In this document: one piece after another, positions 20,507 through 63,122 of the stretch
Numbering within the stretch: position 1 is the stretch's first letter
How the letters are laid out: every line of letters starts with the position of its first letter
DNA from: an uncultured virus (IMG/VR IMGVR_UViG_3300028888_000118)
Lineage: Duplodnaviria > Heunggongvirae > Uroviricota > Caudoviricetes
IMG/VR virus record: IMGVR_UViG_3300028888_000118
Reading direction: 5' to 3' (one strand)
DNA: 64,000 nucleotides
Program-made: the position numbers and the translations under genes
Notes under the pieces: generated by a model
The model's input: the letters and a program-made list of their open reading frames with translations, nothing else
Database searches by the model: none
What the model was told of the DNA's origin: nothing

Positions 20507-21442
20507 TCAATGTGCAGATTGGTCTGCCTTGTGAAGCCATTCAAGCGCAGTCCAAGTTGTATCACTGTAAAGCGCTTTCATTCGTTCCTGATACTTAGCA
20601 TCCTGATAAAAGATCATGTGAAGATTGATCAGAAGTGCAATGATAAGATTATTTCTTCCAGTATCGTCAGCAAGAAAGTCATATGCTCCTACATTTTCAT
20701 GATTGTAGAAATGTGCAACTTCTGAATCTTCTCCCTTTGCATTTTTGAAAACCTTGCAAAACGGCTTTCCAATATCATGAAACACTGCGGCACGTTCAAG
20801 AATAATAAACCATCTATCAGATAATGATTGTCTAATCTCATCAGCGTGTTCAATAATATAATTCATTGCGGCATAGCAATGATCACCTACTGTCATAGTG
20901 TGGTGCGGATTATCCTGTGAAATATTCTCGGATTCATAAAGTTTTGTGTAGAGTTGTGAACCTGTAGTAGTGTCATAATTATGTTCAACAAACACAGCAC
21001 CGAATCCCTCTGCTGTAGACGGTACATTAAACTGACGGTACATCCGATTCATAGCTTCTTCAGGAACTACTCTATCTCTAGCAGAATTACGTTCAAGACA
21101 AATGCTGAAAGGTGCAATTACCACAGTTGCATAAATTTGAAGATCATCAACATCTTTAAGAGAATTTCTAAATTCCTTAATCAAATTCATTCTACGCTTT
21201 CTGCTGACATTAGTAGCGTTATAATAGATCATATTCTTACCGTCACGGACAGCCGCACACGTTCTCTTGAACATCTGCTCAAATACATGCGCTGGATTAT
21301 CCTGACATTCCGCAGAGCCGTAAAGTTCTTCACGGATATCATCAGAAGAAATAATAACATCTGTTTCAGGATTTGCTTTGCTTTTTGCATAGTAATCCTT
21401 ACCCGATCCGGGAAGCCCTACAAGAACATTAATAATACTCAT
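20507..21442 (-). CDS. polynucleotide kinase (AAA_33) fused to an HD phosphoesterase
   Basis: GLPGSGK, SSDDIR, R.R.VPE; QDNPHH..TV.DH, FHDIGKP, HENVGA, LH.AD. Confidence 0.85.
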   Translation of the reverse strand: MSIINVLVGLPGSGKDYYAKSKANPETDVIISSDDIREELYGSAECQDNPAHVFEQMFKRTCAAVRDGKNMIYYNATNVSRKRRMNLIKEFRNSLKDVDDLQIYATVVIAPFSICLERNSARDRVVPEEAMNRMYRQFNVPSTAEGFGAVFVEHNYDTTTGSQLYTKLYESENISQDNPHHTMTVGDHCYAAMNYIIEHADEIRQSLSDRWFIILERAAVFHDIGKPFCKVFKNAKGEDSEVAHFYNHENVGAYDFLADDTGRNNLIIALLINLHMIFYQDAKYQERMKALYSDTTWTALEWLHKADQSAH

Positions 21443-21913: not shown

Positions 21914-23134
21914 TTAGAGTTTTACGGTAAAGACCGATGGCGTACTACACACCTCTACACAGTCTGAGAATATTTCCTCATTCCATGCTTCTTGTTTTGT
22001 TAGGTATTTTCTAAGTATATTCAGAGAACCGTTTATGTCAGCATTTATGTTTCCGAATTTCTTAGATTTATACATCCCACGACTTTCTCTATATCCAGAT
22101 GGACTAAACAAGTCATCGTCAATAGAATATGTTGGAATATAATCTTGATCTAAGAAACTGCACTTTGATGTATATGATTCTTCTTGAATGATAACTTTAA
22201 TACCAACTAACGCGCATTTGTATTGTAGCATACTAATAAACATATTAAACGGAATTTGAACAAAGTTCTGCGTAGTGTCTTTTCTCATATGCGTGTCTTG
22301 TTTCCAACCATTGCTGTGTCCGATAACTAATGTATCGACACGGTTTTCAACTAATTGATTCACAACATAAGTTGAGGACTTGTGCATATAGTCTTTTATC
22401 TTATTATTCCGTTTTCTGTTTATTGCGTACATTCTGTTTGTCCATCTTTGATGTCGTGACATATTATTCGCAATTGTTTTATTGTAATACTGGTTTATAG
22501 ATTTTAGCGGTCTACCATTTATTATAATTGGTCTGAAAACATTTGATGTAACGGAAGCTAGGTTATTAACGCCAATATCAATAGAAGCAAATCGTTCATT
22601 CCTCTGTGATTCAGAAAATTCACTACGCTCATACCCAAGTTCTACTACAATATAATTCTTACGAGGAACTATTCTTGCAAAAGAGACACGTTCAACCTTT
22701 GTTTTTATTTTGAAACTAACACCAGATAACTTAATGTATCCTTTTTCAACATTTCTATTATTTTGTGATATTGCCTGATCTGTATATGTTAAGACTTGTC
22801 TGCCGTATGTTTTGTCAAGGTAATCTGGTATGTTTATTCGTTCTCCACTCTTCTTAACTTTAAGATGTGCGAAGAATGATTTGAAATTATGATCTACAAG
22901 TTTTTGTACTTGTTGTGCAACTTTTCTAGGCAATGCTTGATAATCGTTTGGAAACAAATCATTGGACATCTTATTTATATCAGTATATTTAAGGTATTCT
23001 TTTGTATCAAAGTAATGCTTCCTAACATGATACAGAGTTACATTATATAAGTTCTTTGCTAGAAAACATAGATTATCAAGTTCTTTATAATATTTAGAGT
23101 TCTTTGAATATTGATGCTGTTCAACCAGAATCAT
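21914..23134 (-). CDS. tnpB: TnpB RNA-guided endonuclease (RuvC)
   Basis: AKNLYN, SIDIGVNN, YMHK.S, VIG...GWKQ, EESYTSKC, NADINGSLNI. Confidence 0.92.
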   Translation of the reverse strand: MILVEQHQYSKNSKYYKELDNLCFLAKNLYNVTLYHVRKHYFDTKEYLKYTDINKMSNDLFPNDYQALPRKVAQQVQKLVDHNFKSFFAHLKVKKSGERINIPDYLDKTYGRQVLTYTDQAISQNNRNVEKGYIKLSGVSFKIKTKVERVSFARIVPRKNYIVVELGYERSEFSESQRNERFASIDIGVNNLASVTSNVFRPIIINGRPLKSINQYYNKTIANNMSRHQRWTNRMYAINRKRNNKIKDYMHKSSTYVVNQLVENRVDTLVIGHSNGWKQDTHMRKDTTQNFVQIPFNMFISMLQYKCALVGIKVIIQEESYTSKCSFLDQDYIPTYSIDDDLFSPSGYRESRGMYKSKKFGNINADINGSLNILRKYLTKQEAWNEEIFSDCVEVCSTPSVFTVKL

Positions 23135-23699
23135 CTATCTCACCTTCTTCCAATGCATGAATTATTTGCTCTGTTTTTCGTTTAGTTCTTCGTTTACCAT
23201 AAATTCTAGCACAAAAACTTGTAACAAGTGAAACAAAGTCCTCAAATAAATCCTGATCTGTTTCACATTCATTTACAACTACAATGTCACAATCATCTAA
23301 TAGTAGTTTAATGTAATTGAATCCAAATCTTGTGAGTCTGTCTTTGTATTCAATAACAAGTCTTGTTGCTTTTCTCTCAGTTAATATTTTTGAGAGTTTA
23401 GGTCTGTTATCGTTCAATCCACTAGCACATTCCTTAACAACCTCATTCACTACCCATCCTTTAGCAGTACAGTATTTAGATAGTCTTTCAGCTTGCGTTT
23501 CAAGGTTTGAACGATTCTCAGAAGAACTGACACGAGCATATACAACTGTATATTCTGGTTTTGTAGATTCCTTAATCTCATCAACAACTACAGTTCCACT
23601 AGGTAACTGACGAGCATTTGGAATCAAACCTTCCTTAAAATGATGCCAAGCAGTTTGATAGGATATGGAATTTCTACGAGCATATTCACTAAGTTTCAT
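23121..23699 (-). CDS. tnpA: IS607 transposase (MerR-like HTH + serine recombinase)
   Basis: YARVSS, ASGLND.RP, YKDRLTRFGF, SFCARIYGKR. Confidence 0.95.
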   Translation of the reverse strand: MKLSEYARRNSISYQTAWHHFKEGLIPNARQLPSGTVVVDEIKESTKPEYTVVYARVSSSENRSNLETQAERLSKYCTAKGWVVNEVVKECASGLNDNRPKLSKILTERKATRLVIEYKDRLTRFGFNYIKLLLDDCDIVVVNECETDQDLFEDFVSLVTSFCARIYGKRRTKRKTEQIIHALEEGEIDDSG

Positions 23700-24639: not shown

Positions 24640-25761
24640 TCAAACAATATTGAACATCTTAATGAATCTATTATTTGTCAATTCATCTACAAATGTTTTA
24701 GTATTTCCGCCATCATATGCCTTGTAATACAACACAGGAAGTTGACTCTGTGTCTTAACCCACATAGCAAAAGCCTTACGATTTTCACGGATATCACTAA
24801 CCGGATTGTTCAGTTTCCAGTTTTCAACATCATTAGAAACAATTTCAACTGTTTTATAAACAGCATCTACTTGTTTCTGAACACGGTCAACAGCATCACG
24901 GTATTGAGAAAAGTATGCCAAGAATTCTTCTGTTTCATTAGTTCGCACAAGATCAACAATAGTTTCAAGAGGTACATTTCCATTATGTGCAATCTTATGA
25001 AGTTCAAAATAATGAAGTGTTTTAATCTTCACACGATTTAACATATCGTCACATACAACAATACCTTCATGACTATCATCCATAGATGCTACAAGTTCTT
25101 CATAATCCTTTTGATTATTCAGTTCATACACCTTTGGACGTTCTACATGCAGTGTTGAAGCAATTTCATAAAGTGTATGCTGATCAGTGATTTCTTCAAG
25201 AGTATCCATTCTCCGTACAGAAAGAAGATACAGTTTCGTATCCGGATATTCAATAACAACGCGGTTAAATGGAGAAACAAGTTCAAATGTAAAACAAAGA
25301 TTTTCCCACCGATTACCTTTGAAAACACACAGCGGAAGAACGGATTCAAATAATTCGCCGAATGTATTATATGGCGTTACACCGTGCAACTCCGCTGTAA
25401 ATGCATTGATCGTACCGTTAGTGGAAAGATGCCAGTCTCCGTTAGCGTACCAAACAGACATCAAACTTCCGTCTATTTTTTCAGAAGATGTGGCTTTATT
25501 CCAGTTAATGTCGGCGGCGTACTTCTCTCCAAGATTAAAGAATTTATAGAATGCCAACCGCACAACCTTGAAATTATTAGTTGAATCAAGAATCAGCCCA
25601 CGCGCTTCACGGCAGATTTCCTGACCGAAATCAGATTCAATCTGATTATACTTGAAAAGATAGAAACCGTTTTCCTCTGAAATTTTAAGATTATACGGTT
25701 CTGCGGAAAGCAATTCCTGCCAATTCTCGTGATCATTGATAAATTCTTGAATTTTCAGCAT
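24640..25761 (-). CDS. RNA ligase 1 (T4 Rnl1-like)
   Basis: REARGLI, AFYKFFN.GE, EKIDGSL, FELVSP.NRVV, EGIVV, RVKIK. Confidence 0.9.
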   Translation of the reverse strand: MLKIQEFINDHENWQELLSAEPYNLKISEENGFYLFKYNQIESDFGQEICREARGLILDSTNNFKVVRLAFYKFFNLGEKYAADINWNKATSSEKIDGSLMSVWYANGDWHLSTNGTINAFTAELHGVTPYNTFGELFESVLPLCVFKGNRWENLCFTFELVSPFNRVVIEYPDTKLYLLSVRRMDTLEEITDQHTLYEIASTLHVERPKVYELNNQKDYEELVASMDDSHEGIVVCDDMLNRVKIKTLHYFELHKIAHNGNVPLETIVDLVRTNETEEFLAYFSQYRDAVDRVQKQVDAVYKTVEIVSNDVENWKLNNPVSDIRENRKAFAMWVKTQSQLPVLYYKAYDGGNTKTFVDELTNNRFIKMFNIV

Positions 25762-57474: not shown

Positions 57475-58844
57475 AATTAATCACCACTAATAGCGCAACG
57501 TAATTCCTCAGACTTTTCGTGAATCAGTTTCATCAGTCTAAGTTGCTCTTTTGCATACGGACTTTCCAATATTTGAACAGTGTCATCTTTATTCAACTTA
57601 TCCGTAACCTCGTCAAGTTCATTTTGCAATGCATGAATCTCATTATTAAGATCACTCACACGCGAACTAAGTTCGCTATTTACTGCAACTTTCATAACTA
57701 ATACACCTACAATTAAAACTTTTTCAGGTATTCTGTAATGCTATCAGTTGTGGATTCAAGGAAATCAATATAGTCACAAATATCATTTCGTTCATCTTCA
57801 ATCCGGTGCGCTCTATCAAGTACAATAGATTCAAGATAATTTAGGAATGACCGGATAATCTTCTTACGTACAATAAGTTCTCCGGTACACTCATCATATT
57901 CGTCATCCGGCTTACAGATAGTTTCGGCAGTAATAGTTGTCATAATACTATTCCTATTCAGCGCATCTCTAACCCAATTAGGAAAATATCTGCTATTGCG
58001 AAGTGAGTTTGGAATATTGTCATATCTTACCGCACACTTAGCAACCGTCTTATGAAGACCATCTTTTGTTTCACCGCTGTAAAACTTAATGTCAAGCGGC
58101 GTTCCCTTACCTAGCTTCTTCATTGTTTTTCCTCCTACAATACATTTCACAATCTTCTTTGTTCATATAAAACAGGGGATTCCCTGATTCTATGCAAGTA
58201 TTATCACTAATAGGATTTACAATAATAGTTTTACCATTATCAACGTAGTAAAATACATTGTTTATATTATATGCTGTAACTTCTACTACTCGATATTTCG
58301 GGATATCATAAAAACATTCACAGGCTTTATAATTATCGTCAATACCGTCATTCTCTACTTTTACAAATCCAGTTGATCTGCATTCTTTACAAAATCCAGA
58401 ATGTTTAACAAAATACAATTCAGGTTTATACAAAGTTACAGTACATGCGTTATGCGTGAATTCAGTATCTACAATATAATCATATACTGTATCACTTTGA
58501 TCCGGAGTATTATCAGTATTATCGTTGCTTCGATCATTATTCAATTCTTCATATTCCTGTATGAACTGTTTTGCAAATTCTGCAATCTTATCAAATGTTT
58601 TTATATAATCAGGTTCAGTTGGATTAAACATACTAACAACACCTACCAAAATCAATATAGTTTTTCGGAATCCGGCGCAGATAACGCTCAATATTATCCA
58701 CGCCAGACAGAAGCATTTCGCTTCTTTCACCAAAGGTGTTGTTCCGACAGCTATCTTTTATGTACAAAGGAGGCACACATGTCTATTGTGGCAAGTTAAG
58801 AATAAAAGAAACTACAAAGATAGCAAAGTTTTCTTTTATTTGAG

Positions 58845-58918
58845 TGGGCTTGCCGGGACTCGAACCCGGAATCTGCTGGTTATGAGCCAGTAGCGTTGAC
58901 CGATTGCGCCACAAGCCC
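58845..58918 (-). tRNA. tRNA with CAT anticodon (probably Ile2; Met not excluded)
   Basis: GGGCTTG acceptor, CTCATAA loop, GGTTCGAGTCC. Confidence 0.85.
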
Positions 58919-58921
58919 TTA

Positions 58922-59130
58922 TGATACCCAAAAAGAGAATTGAACTCCTATCAACCGCTTTCTCACATACAATACAAAATCTATTCAGATTGTATTAATG
59001 TCTGCGCGGATTTTGTACGCAGAATTTCATATTTTCATACGAAAATATACCTTACCTGAGTGTGTCTACCGCCTACAGAAGTAGGTCTTATGCATACTTT
59101 CTCGGTCTAATGACGTTGAGCCGCCATATA
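58922..59130 (-). ncRNA. candidate structured RNA with tRNA-like 3' end
   Basis: T-arm AGGAG-TTCAATT-CTCTT then TTTGGGT-A-TCA; three internal hairpins; no standard anticodon arm. Confidence 0.45.
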
Positions 59131-59145
59131 AAATATAATCATTAT

Positions 59146-59220
59146 TGGTGTGGGATAGGAGAGTTGAACTCCCATCTCCTGCTTGGAAGGCAGGAATAAT
59201 AGCCGTTATACCAATCCCAC
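59146..59220 (-). tRNA. tRNA-Gly(TCC)
   Basis: CCTGC-CTTCCAA-GCAGG; encoded CCA. Confidence 0.92.
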
Positions 59221-59429
59221 ATTTATAACTAATGAAATCATGTAATGTAAACCATCATAGATTCTCCTGCAAATTTCTTATAGTGCGAATTATTATAAAG
59301 TTCTTTATGACGGATTTTCTTATTCCATAATCTCTTAAACATTTTTCTGGATGTCTTTTCTCCGTCTTTAATCCACCACTTGTATTTAGAGCCTTTCATA
59401 ATTCACACTCCTTTTGTTATTTAATATGA

Positions 59430-59512
59430 CGGTGTGGGTGGGATTTGAACCCACAACCCTACACGGGCGACTGTTTTCAAGACAGCTTATCTTCCCCACT
59501 GACAACCACACC
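59430..59512 (-). tRNA. tRNA-Ser(TGA)
   Basis: GCTGT-CTTGAAA-ACAGT, long variable arm, G73; atypical D arm. Confidence 0.85.
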
Positions 59513-59523
59513 ATGTTAAATGA

Positions 59524-59607
59524 TGCTACTGACGGGACTTGAACCCGTACTCCGCATCCGGAAGGGGATTTTAAGTCCCCCGCGTCTGCCAATTCCACCA
59601 CAGTAGC
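59524..59607 (-). tRNA. tRNA-Leu(TAA)
   Basis: GGGGA-CTTAAAA-TCCCC, long variable arm. Confidence 0.93.
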
Positions 59608-59611
59608 ATAA

Positions 59612-59684
59612 TCGGAGTGACAGGATTTGAACCTGCGACATTCTGGTCCCAAACCAGACGCGCTACCGACTGCGCTACACCCCG
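59612..59684 (-). tRNA. tRNA-Pro(TGG)
   Basis: CGGGGTG acceptor, TCTGG-TTTGGGA-CCAGA. Confidence 0.93.
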
Positions 59685-59712
59685 ACATATATAATAAATA
59701 TTTGTTAAATGA

Positions 59713-59794
59713 TGCGCCTGACAGGACTTGAACCTGCACGGATTTCTCCACCAGAACCTAAATCTGGCGCGTATGCCAATTTCGCCACAGGCGC
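59713..59794 (-). tRNA. tRNA-Leu(TAG)
   Basis: CCAGA-TTTAGGT-TCTGG, long variable arm. Confidence 0.93.
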
Positions 59795-59884
59795 GTATAA
59801 AATGTTGTGCTTACATGACAGCCTAGAGGTATTCCATACGATCATTAGATCAACCCGACAAACCTTTAATCTAGGATTTTGTAA

Positions 59885-59995
59885 AACTTTATCCTTTGTG
59901 CTTATAATGCTTAATCTTTATATATACCGTTTTCCAACGGTTTTTGAACTGTAAGATTTTAACTTTCAACTTTGAGATTTAATACTTGAACTTTA
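59885..59995 (-). repeat. 7-nt-periodic degenerate (Y)AAAGTT repeats
   Basis: taaagtt caagtat taaatct caaagtt gaaagtt aaaatct tacagtt caaaaac, a hairpin, then about five more units. Confidence 0.75.
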
Positions 59996-59996
59996 T

Positions 59997-60062
59997 ATGT
60001 CATATGTGGAGTCGAACCACACCGCCGGATTTCCAGTCCAGAGTTTTACCGAAATTATAACA
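59997..60062 (-). ncRNA. 66-nt miniature tRNA-like domain (GGA anticodon) inside the large ncRNA
   Basis: TGTTATA/TATGACA acceptor, CTGGA-CTGGAAA-TCCGG, TGTGG-TTCGACT-CCACA; reduced D arm and 3-nt variable loop. Confidence 0.7.
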
Positions 60063-60241
60063 TTCTTTCCTATTAAAGAAAGTTCAAATCTCCGTTACCT
60101 CAATTGTTGGCGAGGTTTCAGTGACTTATTAAATCTCTCTGTTAACGCACAAAGAAAGCGAATCTAAATTTATGGTTTTCGTCATGCAAGCACAATGTAT
60201 TTCAAAAATGCTTTCCTAACATTTCCGACAACTTTATTATA

Positions 60242-60892
60242 TCAGCACTCAAATTCAATTACTGTGGTAGCATTTGAAGTTGAGAGTGCCGCGTCAACTT
60301 TCGTGTTGAAGAAATCATATTCTTCTCTAAGTGCTGTGATTTTGTCCTGAACCTTATTCGGATCAATAAGATCAATTGTGTTTGCTTCGATGTAAGCGTT
60401 TCTTGCGGATTCAATCACATCAGCCTGAATACCTTCCTTGTTTCCAAAAAGTCCGGTAACGTAGCGATCTGCATAATCAGTAATTGCGTCATTAGTCTTC
60501 TTGATTGTGTTCATGCAAACCTTATATTGACTTGCAAGTGTGTTTGCGAGTTTCGCAACAAAGTCAATACCGACATTCCGGTACTCGATCAGTTCAGCAA
60601 CGGTCATTGTAACAGTTTCACCGTTATCTCGTGCAATCGTCACCTCTGTAATTGCATTGCTCTTTGTAATGGCTCTCTTAATGGCATTTCTTCTCCTAAT
60701 GAGGTCTTCCACCTTCTGCATTGCTGACTTCATGGATACACTGTAATCAGCAATACTCATACCATCAATTTTGGTATTTGAGTGCTTAGTAGTGTTTACG
60801 TAGACACTCTGAGACATTTCCTTCTCAATTCTGCTTGCAAGTGTTTTAAGTTCCGCAAGACCCTCGTGAACTGTCATTGTGTACTTCTGCAT
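60242..60892 (-). CDS. 216-aa alpha-helical/coiled-coil protein, ncRNA-associated candidate
   Basis: MTVHEGLAELK.L..RI, LI.RRNAIK.AI..SNA.T.V, TVAELIE, IDP, VDAALS.SNA.T.I; strong AGGAGG RBS. Confidence 0.8.
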   Translation of the reverse strand: MQKYTMTVHEGLAELKTLASRIEKEMSQSVYVNTTKHSNTKIDGMSIADYSVSMKSAMQKVEDLIRRRNAIKRAITKSNAITEVTIARDNGETVTMTVAELIEYRNVGIDFVAKLANTLASQYKVCMNTIKKTNDAITDYADRYVTGLFGNKEGIQADVIESARNAYIEANTIDLIDPNKVQDKITALREEYDFFNTKVDAALSTSNATTVIEFEC

Positions 60893-60942
60893 AATAAATT
60901 CCTCCTAAACTTTAATTCCTTACTAGCTTCTTGCTAGCATAA

Positions 60943-61018
60943 TGGTGGTTAGAGTCCGAGTCGAACGAACTTCTGCCGATTTTCAGTCGGCGGCACCAAC
61001 CGTGTATACCATCTAACC
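60943..61018 (-). tRNA. tRNA-Phe(GAA)
   Basis: GCCGA-CTGAAAA-TCGGC; encoded CCA. Confidence 0.88.
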
Positions 61019-61037
61019 GTTTCTTGATTACAATCAT

Positions 61038-61066
61038 AGTATAACATATTTTCTTAGTTTTGTCAA
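61038..61066 (-). promoter_or_regulatory. promoter for the tRNA-Phe / coiled-coil gene / ncRNA / tRNA operon
   Basis: TTGACA-17-TGtTATACT. Confidence 0.85.
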
Positions 61067-61403
61067 TACCTTTTCGTGCCAAAGTCATTACAAGTTTTCA
61101 TCTTGTTTTTGTGCAACATCACTAGACTGTAATTGATCAATAAGAGATTTAAGCCTTACAATCATTTCCTGCTTGTCATAAACAGAAATATCAAAATTCT
61201 CTGGAATAAAGATCATGTTCGGTTTCTTGTCTGATATACTTTCAATGTGTTTCTTGATAGCGTCACACATAGCATAAATTTCTGATTTGGTATATACTAA
61301 ATCTGTTTTACATGTTACGCACATTACTTCATTGTCTTTTGGTAAAGGTACATTTTTGAATTCAAATTCGTACATAATATCACACCTCTCGTTTATTTTG
61401 ATA

Positions 61404-61474
61404 AGGCAACAGTTGGATTTGAACCAACGATTACGGTGTTGCGGACCGCTGTGTTACCACTTCACTATGTTGCC
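61404..61474 (-). tRNA. tRNA-Cys(GCA)
   Basis: GCGGT-CCGCAAC-ACCGT (C at position 33), U73. Confidence 0.88.
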
Positions 61475-61513
61475 GTGATCACGCCTATTATTAATATCCT
61501 GAATAGGCACAGG

Positions 61514-61636
61514 TGTCTAATGACCTGCCGTTCTGTTTTTCCGTGACATAATACGCTATTAAAACATACTATGCGCCTTGACTATCCTAGACCGGATAGG
61601 TGGGAATCGAACCCACTCACGGGAACATACTAGACA
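61514..61636 (-). ncRNA. circularly permuted tRNA-like RNA (YrlA/Y-RNA-like layout)
   Basis: Closing stems, then T arm GTGGG-TTCGATT-CCCAC, loop-closed stem CTATCC-ggtcta-GGATAG and a 12-bp hairpin. Confidence 0.6.
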
Positions 61637-61638
61637 TT

Positions 61639-61714
61639 TGGTAGCGGATATCTGATTTGAACAGATGACATAATGCGTATGAAGCATTCACTCTACCAAC
61701 TGAGTTAATCCACC
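61639..61714 (-). tRNA. tRNA-Met(CAT), elongator type
   Basis: AATGC-TTCATAC-GCATT; encoded CCA. Confidence 0.88.
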
Positions 61715-61718
61715 AGAA

Positions 61719-61792
61719 CTCCCGCAGAGGGATTTGAACCCCCCGACAAAAAGATTAACAATCTTCTGCGCTACCGACTGCGCTATGCGGGA
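61719..61792 (-). tRNA. tRNA-Asn(GTT)
   Basis: TCCCGCA acceptor, GAAGA-TTGTTAA-TCTTT, G73. Confidence 0.92.
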
Positions 61793-61807
61793 TTATTTAT
61801 TTAATGA

Positions 61808-61880
61808 TGTGCCAAGAGGGGATCGAACCCTCGACCTTCCACTTAAAAGGCGGATGCTCTGCCAACTGAGCTATTGGCAC
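61808..61880 (-). tRNA. tRNA-Lys(TTT)
   Basis: TCCGC-CTTTTAA-GTGGA. Confidence 0.93.
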
Positions 61881-61899
61881 ATCAATTATACCGAATTTT

Positions 61900-62601
61900 T
61901 TACACAAGCATATCTTTAACTTTCTGATCACTGAGCCATGTAGGAAATTCTTTAAGCAAATCCTGATAAGTAATGTTTTCTGCCTTACTTACTGCAAAAA
62001 AGTCAGCATTATCCACGTACCGACCTTCCAGATTATCTAGGCTTTCCAGATAGCTAAACTTTGAATCACCGAGTCCTACAAATTGCCAGAAAATAGGTTT
62101 CTTTGCGGCTTCAATAATTGTTGCTGTTGTATCCGTTTTATCATTGTCGAAATTATCTCCATCTGTAATAAAAATAACATATACAGGCAACTTCTCATTT
62201 TTATAAAATTTAATGATATCTCCCATAACTGGGCTATAGTTTGTTCCGCCCATGCTCTTTCCTTTTGTTTCCCGCTTAATGTATCCGTCCAGATTATTCA
62301 GATTTGCATCTTTAAGTCTACGACAACTATCAGAAAAAAGCCACGTTTCCATACTACCATCATCATCAAAGTTCATTGCAAGCGGTAGCATTTTTTCAAC
62401 AACTCTCTGAACAGTTCCGTTGCTATACAACCAATCCATAGAACCGCTGTAATCAAGAACAAGTGCTACTTTTGCTTTGAGATCAATTAGTGGCTTCTTG
62501 TCAAGACATACTTTATGTACTTCCTCTTTTGCAAGATTCACTTTTTGTACAAGACTTGTTTCATCATTGTCTTTTTTCTTGAACATATCAAAAATTCCCA
62601 T
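61900..62601 (-). CDS. vWA-domain protein (TerF/TerY-type)
   Basis: MIDAS DYSGSM, FDDDG, GGTNY.PVM, FITDG, PIFWQFVG.G, LD.L.GR.VDNA.FF. Confidence 0.88.
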   Translation of the reverse strand: MGIFDMFKKKDNDETSLVQKVNLAKEEVHKVCLDKKPLIDLKAKVALVLDYSGSMDWLYSNGTVQRVVEKMLPLAMNFDDDGSMETWLFSDSCRRLKDANLNNLDGYIKRETKGKSMGGTNYSPVMGDIIKFYKNEKLPVYVIFITDGDNFDNDKTDTTATIIEAAKKPIFWQFVGLGDSKFSYLESLDNLEGRYVDNADFFAVSKAENITYQDLLKEFPTWLSDQKVKDMLV

Positions 62602-62631
62602 TATAAAATTCCTCCGTAGTTATTAAAATAG

Positions 62632-62705
62632 CATGGGAGCGAGGAATCGAACCCACTAATCTTGCAGTTTTGGAGACTGCCGTGCTACCATTACACTACT
62701 CCCCT
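62632..62705 (-). tRNA. tRNA-Trp(CCA), with acceptor and T-stem mismatches
   Basis: GCAGT-CTCCAAA-ACTGC. Confidence 0.8.
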
Positions 62706-63122
62706 ATGTTTAACTAATCGGTCGATCCGTCAGGATGATCTTCAAGCCACTCATAATAAAAATCAGCTTCATAATACCAATTTTCTTCTACTTGAATCCA
62801 ATGCCATTCAGCGTCAGAAAAATCATAGTTTTCAAACTCATAACCATAAATTTGATAATACTGCTCACTTTCGTTCATTGCTTCGATACGTGCAGTGTCC
62901 TTTGCTGTATTTCGGTTGTATGATTTTTTACGGTAATATTTTTTACCATGATTCATAACGCACCTCTTTATTGTTGTATCCGCTGTTCTATATCCAACCA
63001 TCTCCGCAGATATGGCGGCTCTTCATTATCCATATAATGCGAACTTCCGGTGTCCGAATGACACAGCGTAGGCAAGCGGCTTACCTATTTATAGATTATT
63101 ATAAATTATACAGTATGATTAT

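Follow-up and report, generated by a model that had tools for sequence, protein, structure and literature searches.

The DNA analysed here is a stretch of 64,000 nucleotides (nt) from an uncultured virus (IMG/VR record IMGVR_UViG_3300028888_000118), referred to below as the window. On its minus strand, at 59805-60195, lies a non-coding block that is preceded by the gene of a 216-residue protein and embedded in a tRNA operon: downstream of a promoter follow tRNA-Phe, the protein gene, the block and further tRNA genes, all in the same direction (Table 1). ARAGORN counted 12 tRNA genes in this minus-strand array, and no terminator-like site was found between the promoter (61066-61038) and the block. 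An earlier note, made from the letters alone, had taken gene and block for a pair of helical protein and non-coding RNA; promoter, tRNA-Phe, open reading frame (ORF), 46-nt gap, block and tRNA genes all lie where it had placed them. Comparison with relatives showed firmly that the block is a structured RNA that is conserved and contains a heptad array of fixed layout, and that in very distant phages and in some bacteria this RNA is genetically linked to a single protein family.

A blastn search of the block against 50,697 phage records gave no match; the family is too divergent for a search at the DNA level. With the protein, tblastn found matches in 710 phage records. Of these matches 705 were almost complete, and identity stayed below 60% throughout. 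The records included T5-like phages of Salmonella, Escherichia and Shigella, Vibrio pVp-1-like phages, Pseudomonas syringae phages, Bacillus Bastille-like phages, Klebsiella Mydovirus, Lactococcus 949-like phages and the C. difficile phage phiCD211. In the named phages that were opened the gene was followed on its 3' side by 370-640 nt without annotated coding sequence (CDS). In DT57C/T5, pVp-1, Bc431v3, WRP3, KIL4, VLCpiM5a and phiCD211 the RNA lay inside such a gap, of 370-500 nt. By eye the gap showed the order closing stem, GAAAAC or a variant, A-rich repeats, AAAUCC, hairpin, GGCU, closing stem. The layout GAAAAC, AAAG repeats, AAAUCC and GGUUU, which the earlier note had given for Firmicutes, was seen in relatives both there and elsewhere.

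A search of viral contigs with the single protein yielded no loci; related loci were obtained with an alignment (A1). The 91 phage or metagenome loci (L001-L091) were reduced to 67 distinct downstream regions. A script that looked for a closing stem with its 5' strand within 160 nt of the stop codon and its 3' strand after G[CT]T found a stem of 10-21 bp in 64 of them, delimiting RNAs of 298-468 nt. The other three (L005, L068 and L088) were recovered with R1, a covariance model of the 3' 135 positions built from 36 RNAs with the window group excluded and L001, L009 and L029 included; in L005 and L068 the RNA lay further downstream. Script and model together therefore placed the RNA in 67/67 regions. 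On bacterial genome loci R1 found the RNA on the strand of the gene and just downstream of it in 75 of 80 cases. The misses were L217 (92 nt of downstream DNA), L279 (a contig of 1355 nt), L282 and L287 (where the script found a closing stem) and one more. Of 79 bacterial loci only 38 passed the strict rule of the script; the shortfall reflects the weakness of the rule, as the R1 count indicates. In the window R1 gave a single match (59812-59955, minus strand, 89.5 bits, E 1e-10). Of three whole bacterial genomes, two gave no R1 match other than the copy behind the gene; in the third, of 12.4 Mb, the known copy fell below the genome-wide threshold.

The same linkage was seen from the side of the RNA. 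A 16-mer of the conserved tail fetched 80 loci, 62 of which were chance matches with neither heptads nor protein; among the 18 loci with array or protein, 17 had the protein directly upstream (E <= 3.1e-68 with a profile hidden Markov model). Across the family the RNA starts 20-60 nt after the stop codon and measures 230-470 nt. In other words gene and RNA are almost never apart, and the tight pairing that had been proposed, along with the conserved downstream structure, was found in phages, metagenomes and bacteria alike. In the T5 group the RNA region was found in 444 phage records; the match was almost complete in 438 of them and reached at least 90% identity in 426. There it is an RNA of about 357 nt between T5.085 and T5.084 that is unannotated in nearly all matches listed; in DT57C the gene itself is annotated as a homologue of T5.085.

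In most loci scanned the module is flanked by tRNA genes. On the chromosomes of Lysinibacillus, Calothrix and B. paralicheniformis the pair has only ordinary cellular genes around it, which argues that it is a self-contained module. The Lysinibacillus pair lies between a tRNA U5-methyltransferase gene and a transporter gene, that of B. paralicheniformis between rok and a tetR-type gene. In the Calothrix chromosome (L289, 9642-14306) the pair is followed on the same strand by genes for a microbial PARG, an RNA ligase (PF09414) and EF-Tu, a neighbourhood that may be an RNA-repair or conflict island. The loci L227-L257 from Lysinibacillus and Solibacillus, mostly the former, showed the same spacing with a junction GCAGCU in place of GGCU. 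In strain RS11 the pair has its place among ordinary chromosomal genes, a position that suggests long-term retention by the host. The only copy without the protein was found in L099 (1-2616). It comprised the array and the 3' domain (R1 match at 1245-1376, 122.2 bits), followed an ORF of 406 aa that is rich in zinc ribbons, endonuclease-like and ends at 1221, and preceded a tyrosine-recombinase-like ORF; truncation or invasion may account for this copy. In Dulem virus 39 (L001, 3642-4099) three annotated CDS of 36-48 aa (XCD07466.1, XCD07536.1 and XCD07538.1) overlap the RNA or the tRNA-Ser that comes after it; labelled 'hypothetical protein', they are probably spurious.

The fold was assessed in the window copy and on an alignment of 44 distinct RNAs (A2), the latter with 500 shuffles as controls. 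The minimum free energy (MFE) of the block was -104.4 kcal/mol as compared with -77.2 ± 5.4 kcal/mol for shuffled sequences (z -5.04), a value equalled by none of 100 shuffles, and the closing stem was found in MFE and centroid structures alike. On A2 the whole structure, including the pseudoknot treated below, had 93.3% of its cells paired versus 69.0% in the shuffles (0/500), and 29 of its 32 pairs showed changes on both sides. When the 3' partner was shifted by 1-3 columns only 30-46% of the cells paired. The closing stem (P1), which in the window has the proposed 15 bp including one G-U, changed on both sides in 18/18 pairs with 97.6% of cells paired. The pairing of CCUAGA with UCUAGG, also anticipated, delimits a 3' hairpin domain in which five of six pairs covaried (87.9% paired), the outermost pair being largely unpaired in relatives; all three pairs of the inner hairpin covaried (92.1% paired). 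The GCU of the GGCU next to P1 was invariant in 44/44 RNAs. The 5' hairpin of the window group covaried by eye (CUCUA/UAGAG in L004, CUGCU/AGCGG in L091). Its equivalent in A2, which follows the GAAAAC...AAAC stretch, was 77.1% paired with 8/8 pairs covarying, and in many members its loop pairs further downstream to give an H-type pseudoknot (53-69% paired). G-U pairs were frequent on the sense strand of the gene only (column pair 15/757, for example, is GU in 27/44 RNAs), so that the fold belongs to the RNA of that strand and not to the DNA.

A second pseudoknot had been proposed to join the two ends of the RNA by pairing of AAACC in the joining strand with GGUUU in the loop of the 3' hairpin. 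Both elements are where they were said to be. Taken alone the helix was 87.1% paired versus 83.7% in the shuffles (0/500), with 9 compensatory cells versus 1.9 (2/500); the support comes almost wholly from one column pair (CG 19, UG 15, UA 7, other 2), and this part of the proposal stands on modest covariation. The GAAAAC strand and the 3' hairpin domain ending in GGCU lie at the junction of the two ends, where they probably form the pseudoknot. An alternative partner, a second AAAC motif (columns 32-36), was rejected, as 188/500 shuffles were equally good. A long-range helix GCUUUCUUUGUGC/GCACAAAGGAUAAAG appeared in the MFE structure of the window, but a local hairpin, for which L004 and L091 also show covariation, competes with it, and the long-range helix is not claimed here.

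Of all parts of the RNA the A-rich heptad tract is the most unusual. Same-letter autocorrelation was 0.49, 0.447 and 0.406 at lags of 7, 14 and 21 versus 0.327 in shuffles, with troughs between, which confirmed the repeat that had been noticed by inspection; there was no 7-nt periodicity in the 5' and middle region or in the rest of the RNA. Counted on alignment columns with at least 80% occupancy, the array consists of exactly 15 heptads in register: seven NUNAAAG units, a degenerate unit UUUAUUa, five further units, and then UUUUAYA and AAAUCC leading into the 3' hairpin. The degenerate unit is the site at which longer members carry hairpin insertions, that of the window lying at 59940-59927. 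In 30 of the 44 RNAs the array was 96-110 nt long, and the A at positions 209, 216 and 223 of the window RNA was invariant in all 44. Even the compact RNAs of 229-300 nt from cyanobacteria, Brevibacillus, Paenibacillus and Lysinibacillus keep the seven units, the linker and the five units. About half of the array is A and it is poor in C. Self-pairing is impossible, and the array is conserved as sequence rather than as covarying pairs. As far as can be judged from sequence, the array therefore bears the signature of a single-stranded platform that would be read repeatedly by one kind of partner.

The region between 5' hairpin and array is variable, with a length of roughly 0 to 200 nt. The earlier note had described hairpins and a tRNA-like domain in the interior. 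The hairpins are present, whereas the tRNA-like domain is not a conserved feature: it lies in the variable region, scored 23.2 bits on the Rfam tRNA model (gathering score 29), was not called by ARAGORN at 59998-60061, and in the relative L091 is replaced by two plain hairpins. Whole tRNA genes were called by ARAGORN within the variable region of 7/82 RNAs (3/44 from phages and 4/38 from bacterial loci), namely Ile, Ser, Gln, Asn, Lys and Thr and one unassigned. Two variable regions held tandem pairs of complete tRNA genes, Ser and Gln in L028 (2141-2608) and Asn and Ser in L223.

Transcripts were looked for in metatranscriptomes of ruminant gut samples, where four runs from three studies contained stand-alone contigs equal to the block (Table 1). 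Contigs of the CDS were separate from these. In two studies contigs of the block stop at 59806, a single base short of where the closing stem ends, and no loose end is listed at that point; this is a weak hint of a 3' end. The tRNA-Leu begins 10 nt after the RNA, and RNase P cleavage at the 5' end of this tRNA would free the 3' end of the RNA. In run X2 the contig depth was 67.1 for the block and 5.4 for the CDS, which was not read as a ranking of expression levels, and nothing was concluded from the patchy or missing contig cover over the tRNAs and the promoter. Folding energy, covariation across 44 relatives and block-sized contigs bear out the claim of a discrete structured RNA, which is probably freed from the operon transcript as a stable species.

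Table 1. Features of the RNA-protein locus in the window and metatranscriptome contigs that correspond to the RNA
Feature	Position	Strand	Remarks
Promoter, sigma-70-type, TTGACA-17-TATACT	61038..61066	-	TG extension (TG-n-TATACT); 11/12 consensus matches
tRNA-Phe (GAA)	60943..61018	-	ARAGORN
ORF of 216-aa partner protein	60242..60892	-	followed by 46-nt gap to RNA
Whole structured RNA, 391 nt	59805..60195	-	closing stem to closing stem; without ORF
P1 closing stem, 5' strand	60181..60195	-	pairs with 59819-59805
Joining strand GAAAACC	60174..60180	-	conserved; AAACC is 5' half of proposed pseudoknot
5' hairpin CUUUGU/ACAGAG	60137..60154	-	loop GCGUUA
Hairpin ACCUC/GAGGU	60097..60116	-	conserved loop GCCAAYAAUU; by eye in window, L004 and L091; window group only
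Hairpin CUUUCU/GGAAAG	60065..60082	-	variable middle region; MFE and centroid
tRNA-like remnant	59998..60061	-	anticodon-arm-like and T-arm-like hairpins; variable region
Array block 1, 8 heptads	59941..59997	-	UAUAAAG UUCAAGU AUUAAAU CUCAAAG UUGAAAG UUAAAAU CUUACAG UUCAAAA
Small hairpin CCGUUGGAAAACGG	59927..59940	-	inserted at array linker, as in other long arrays
Array block 2	59874..59926	-	conserved tail AAAGUUUUACAAAAUCC at end
3' hairpin domain CCUAG(A)/(U)CUAGG	59822..59875	-	CCUAGA 59875-59870 with UCUAGG 59827-59822
GGUUU	59860..59864	-	in 3' hairpin loop; 3' half of proposed pseudoknot with AAACC
Inner hairpin CGG...UCG	59839..59857	-	within 3' domain
GGCU	59820..59823	-	immediately 5' of P1 3' strand
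P1 closing stem, 3' strand	59805..59819	-	pairs with 60195-60181
tRNA-Leu (UAG)	59713..59794	-	10 nt 3' of RNA; ARAGORN
Contig of run X21	59806-60211		whole 405-nt contig
Contig of run X22	59806-60181		whole 375-nt contig
Contig of run X2	59835-60181		whole 347-nt contig
Contig of run X20	59892-60221		adapter letters at both ends

The region 58500-63000 was scanned with 4227 models of Rfam 15 at E <= 10. Within the block the only rows were at chance level (a weak tRNA match, snoZ43 with E 2.3 and CRISPR-DR45 with E 9.8); neither tmRNA, RNase P RNA nor any other named family matched, and ARAGORN found no tmRNA. The models of GOLLD and ROOL, which together with RNase P RNA and tmRNA had been singled out beforehand as families to compare, gave no match in the window, in L001-L003 (E <= 1) or in 11 further loci (E <= 0.1). 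The claim of an undescribed family holds for the window copy in that it matches no Rfam family. It does not hold for a subclade from gut phages, where the first 85 nt or so of the RNA are the orphan motif RAGATH-27 (RF03100, 86 nt). In L001 (Dulem virus 39) and L029 this motif runs from the 5' strand of P1 through GAAAAC and the 5' hairpin, with scores of 77.2 and 94.7 bits (gathering score 76.1); L009 remained below the gathering score with 59.3 bits. RAGATH-27 gave no row in the scanned region of the window and no match at E <= 0.1 in the copies of T5-like, Vibrio, Bacillus, Lactococcus and Klebsiella phages. Comparison of the RAGATH-27 consensus (..UUAcCGAAAACUUuAAACUAuAAu..) with the window (GACGAAAACCAUAAAUUUAGAUU) shows that GAAAAC and the spacing are kept while the rest differs. 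Since R1, built with RAGATH-27 carriers and without the window group, nevertheless matches the window, the window RNA belongs to the same family as a diverged member. With its one 7-bp hairpin the Rfam model spans roughly a quarter of the RNA and lacks the partner strand of the closing stem, the heptad array and the 3' domain; judged from these matches, RAGATH-27 is the front quarter of a larger RNA. In the literature we found no description of the full RNA, its array or its link to the protein, although a prior remark on a gene association of RAGATH-27 may exist, and no text on RAGATH-27, T5.085, T5p083 or phrog_1491. The word 'RAGATH' is absent from the main text of PMC5737381.

The protein falls into phrog_1491 of PHROGs (E 7.9e-50). 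An AlphaFold model based on 32 sequences (predicted local distance difference test, pLDDT, 80; predicted template modelling score, pTM, 0.72) showed six long helices with four short strands forming a small cap, in agreement with the helical protein expected from the sequence. Invariant residues are N35, H37, N39, K41, G44, two S-N-A motifs, D174, D177 and P178; in the predicted model they sit in or beside the cap strands and at helix ends. Searches of Pfam, NCBIfam and PDB sequence profiles gave nothing above noise, and Foldseek found no PDB match at E <= 0.001. The best hits of a wide fold search (VIA) were syntaxin-like bundles with Z 8.9, below the bar of about 13 used for helical proteins, and a fold search of BFVD returned uncharacterised phage homologues only. 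A relationship to DIP1984/DUF-like proteins, as suggested earlier, was faint at best: the ESM Atlas gave a lead to DIP1984/DUF6847-like proteins at 0.87, below the bar of 0.9, Pfam DUF6847 had no row for the window protein (E <= 10) and matched 2/32 relatives (best E 0.012), and the C. diphtheriae structure 3kdq, of unknown function, was reached by Foldseek with E 0.12. Pfam and the fold searches revealed no nuclease domain.

The label of phrog_1491 is 'tail fiber protein', and the same label is found in many RefSeq phage records such as NC_029048.2 and NC_027341.1. Tail-fibre chains were absent from the fold matches listed by Foldseek and VIA, an absence from hit lists that is not proof. The gene lies in tRNA and early-gene regions rather than in tail modules, and also in bacterial chromosomes without phage genes. 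Neither this genomic place nor the predicted fold supports the label, which thus looks unfounded, and the annotation probably needs changing.

It might be asked what an RNA of this kind, coupled to one protein, could do. In the mechanism that we tentatively prefer, one transcript would yield the helical protein of about 210 aa and, 20-60 nt past its stop codon, the structured RNA. The RNA would be excised from the transcript of the tRNA operon and accumulate as a stable species, its ends clamped by the closing stem of 10-21 bp with the GAAAAC strand and the 3' hairpin domain at the junction. The array would then serve as a periodic landing pad with one copy of the protein per heptad or per pair of heptads, and the outcome would be a closed ribonucleoprotein (RNP) of fixed stoichiometry. 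Because the constant neighbours are tRNA genes and RNA-repair genes, the particle may act on tRNA or translation biology during infection. That the heptads seat several copies of the co-encoded protein in such a closed RNP is a serious possibility, if somewhat short of probable. A more specific version, which is doubtful but conceivable, is an RNP programmed by sequence: about twelve copies of the helical protein, one per UNAAAG heptad, on an end-locked RNA would make up a ring or a short filament, closed and of fixed size, by which tRNAs are carried or presented and their supply, repair or protection in infection is managed. If this were true, its users would range from T5, Bacillus Bastille-like phages and C. 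difficile phiCD211 to rumen jumbo-type phages; some bacteria, such as Lysinibacillus and filamentous cyanobacteria, would have retained it to serve themselves, and some tRNAs would be built into the RNA.

Repeated reading of a spaced motif by the subunits of one oligomer has precedents. HutP recognises UAG triplets that recur every 7 nt, and TRAP binds 11 triplets. The array resembles these in having a short motif at fixed spacing in single-stranded RNA, as reflected in the lag-7 autocorrelation; theirs, however, are short leader elements that control a terminator, whereas here 12 units lie in a large closed RNA. The protein itself had no HutP or TRAP row in Pfam or NCBIfam, and the fold searches listed only generic helical bundles. 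Bacterial Ro (Rsr) offers a further parallel, since a Y-like RNA with paired ends and a tRNA-like module is encoded beside the protein and near RNA-repair genes. In our case no Rfam Y-RNA matched, and the protein is a 216-aa helical bundle and not a TROVE/vWA ring. A protein gene directly followed by its own structured RNA is also known from TnpB/IscB, where another orphan motif, RAGATH-18, proved to be the RNA partner (omega/reRNA), according to the abstract of PMC11061315. In contrast to TnpB/IscB the present protein has no nuclease domain, and both RNA ends are locked in a stem, leaving no free guide segment.

Several points weigh against a closed RNP of RNA and co-encoded protein. Pfam, NCBIfam, PDB profile and fold searches yielded neither a recognisable RNA-binding domain nor a solved relative of the protein. 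The protein is mildly acidic to neutral (isoelectric point 5.0-7.9, net charge -7 to +1), which argues against a non-specific RNA coat, though not against specific binding. The AAACC/GGUUU pseudoknot has by itself modest support, mainly from its one covarying column pair. The transcript evidence consists of assembled contigs, which do not show true ends or levels, and DNA in RNA libraries is possible. A conserved host factor could equally occupy the heptads, and adjacency of genes can also come from cis regulation.

The first of these alternatives would make the RNA the centre of the particle, in the manner of ROOL and GOLLD: the RNA would fold and perhaps multimerise alone, with the protein as a helper in folding, processing or loading, and the array would bind a universal host component (the ribosome, protein S1 or an RNase) or make RNA-RNA contacts. 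GOLLD and ROOL are phage-encoded, lie beside tRNA islands and at times carry tRNAs in a linker region (bioRxiv 10.1101/2024.12.08.627333, available portion). The genomic ecology is the same here, with the 12-tRNA array of the window, tRNAs flanking most loci and tRNA genes inside 7/82 RNAs. As far as that portion of the preprint goes, the likeness extends to their being phage or prophage RNAs of unknown function whose 3' part is conserved and whose 5' part varies more. The consensus of the array is nearly alike in phages of Firmicutes, Proteobacteria and Cyanobacteria, as would be expected for a universal target, and the protein is not basic. On the other hand the present RNA is smaller, contains a single-stranded heptad array and is not matched by the ROOL/GOLLD models. 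Moreover, in the same source GOLLD and ROOL have no known protein partner and no dedicated protein gene, whereas here the linkage is nearly absolute, and a universal host partner leaves unexplained why gene and RNA travel together even as a lone chromosomal pair. We regard an RNA-centred particle as rather unlikely.

A cis-acting 3' untranslated region, which would stabilise or autoregulate the upstream mRNA with the protein binding its own 3' tail and the RNA having no role of its own, could explain why gene and RNA always share one transcript, the RNA beginning 20-60 nt past the stop codon, and why an intrinsic terminator directly follows the RNA in several phages, including one annotated in KIL4. 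It is nevertheless improbable. An RNA of 230-470 nt with at least five conserved elements and a fixed array of 12 units exceeds the needs of known 3' stabilisers, whole tRNA genes are embedded in 7/82 copies, and in four RNA runs the block-sized contigs are separate from the CDS.

Less probable again is a conflict module. It could be a pair of the toxin-antitoxin kind, the protein being neutralised by the repeat RNA, or the RNA could act as a decoy that sequesters a host nuclease directed at tRNA and have the protein as its partner. The repeat RNA beside a protein gene is reminiscent of type III toxin-antitoxin systems (ToxIN), in which repeat RNA and protein are encoded adjacently and form a defined complex, in phages as well as bacteria. 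A two-part unit scattered in phages, with lone islets in bacterial chromosomes, would suit such a role, as would the tRNA-repair neighbours, namely the ligases and the kinase of the window phage, RtcB in Dulem virus 39, and PARG and RNA ligase in Calothrix. However, the RNA repeats of ToxIN are tandem units of about 36 nt upstream of the toxin gene, whereas those described here are of 7 nt, lie downstream of the gene and stand between large conserved folded domains. The protein matched no toxin or defence family: PADLOC gave 0 families for the window protein and at best E 0.0081 (12.7 bits) in three bacterial homologues, which is not a meaningful score, and no ToxN/AbiQ-type family of Pfam matched the window protein or its relatives. 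The presence of the gene in locus after locus of Lysinibacillus species is likewise atypical of an addictive element. Finally, a DNA element (origin iterons or a packaging site) or decayed tRNA debris, for which the short A+T-rich direct and inverted repeats also typical of origins and the tRNA-like remnant might speak, is very hard to maintain, because the helices covary in A2 with many compensatory changes and G-U pairing on one strand only, RNA-library contigs match the block, and R1 finds the RNA across phages that have no other DNA similarity and for which blastn was blank.

Taken together, the observations suggest a module of RNA and protein that is associated with clusters of tRNA genes and has so far not been characterised. 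Its reach is very wide: the phages that carry the pair infect Gram-positive, Gram-negative or cyanobacterial hosts, and bacterial chromosomes contain it on its own. In the T5 group it amounts to an overlooked gene for a structured RNA in a model phage. The orphan RAGATH-27 can now be placed within a complete RNA and beside a partner gene, and T5 or BF23 infecting E. coli K-12 offers a tractable system for it. Beside GOLLD and ROOL the RNA might represent a third class of tRNA-island RNA, and of the three it alone would come with a candidate partner protein; such a partner could help to explain why large phage RNAs are placed beside tRNA genes. The fixed array of seven and five heptads is an unusual and clean feature, and it predicts a defined stoichiometry.

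The window phage is large and of rumen type, with genes for clamp-loader subunits, a Lon-like protease, PhoH and several DNA methyltransferases. On its minus strand it also carries a set resembling tRNA repair (2272-2913, 20507-21442 and 24640-25761), which comprises two RNA ligase-type proteins (phrog_548 and phrog_562) and a polynucleotide kinase-type protein (phrog_505/6931). Two adjoining ORFs at 21914-23699 (minus strand) have the look of an IS607-type insertion: the product of 406 aa belongs to the transposase family phrog_506 (E 2.7e-40), and that of 192 aa to the transposase family phrog_6620, which also matches DNA invertase. The tRNA-Phe upstream of the protein gene was called by ARAGORN, yet the Rfam scan gave no minus-strand tRNA row there and only a weak plus-strand Plastid-ycf2 row. 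Within the tRNA array an ORF of 233 aa (61900-62601, minus strand; phrog_5359) shows by eye a DxSxS-type motif that may resemble that of a von Willebrand A domain.

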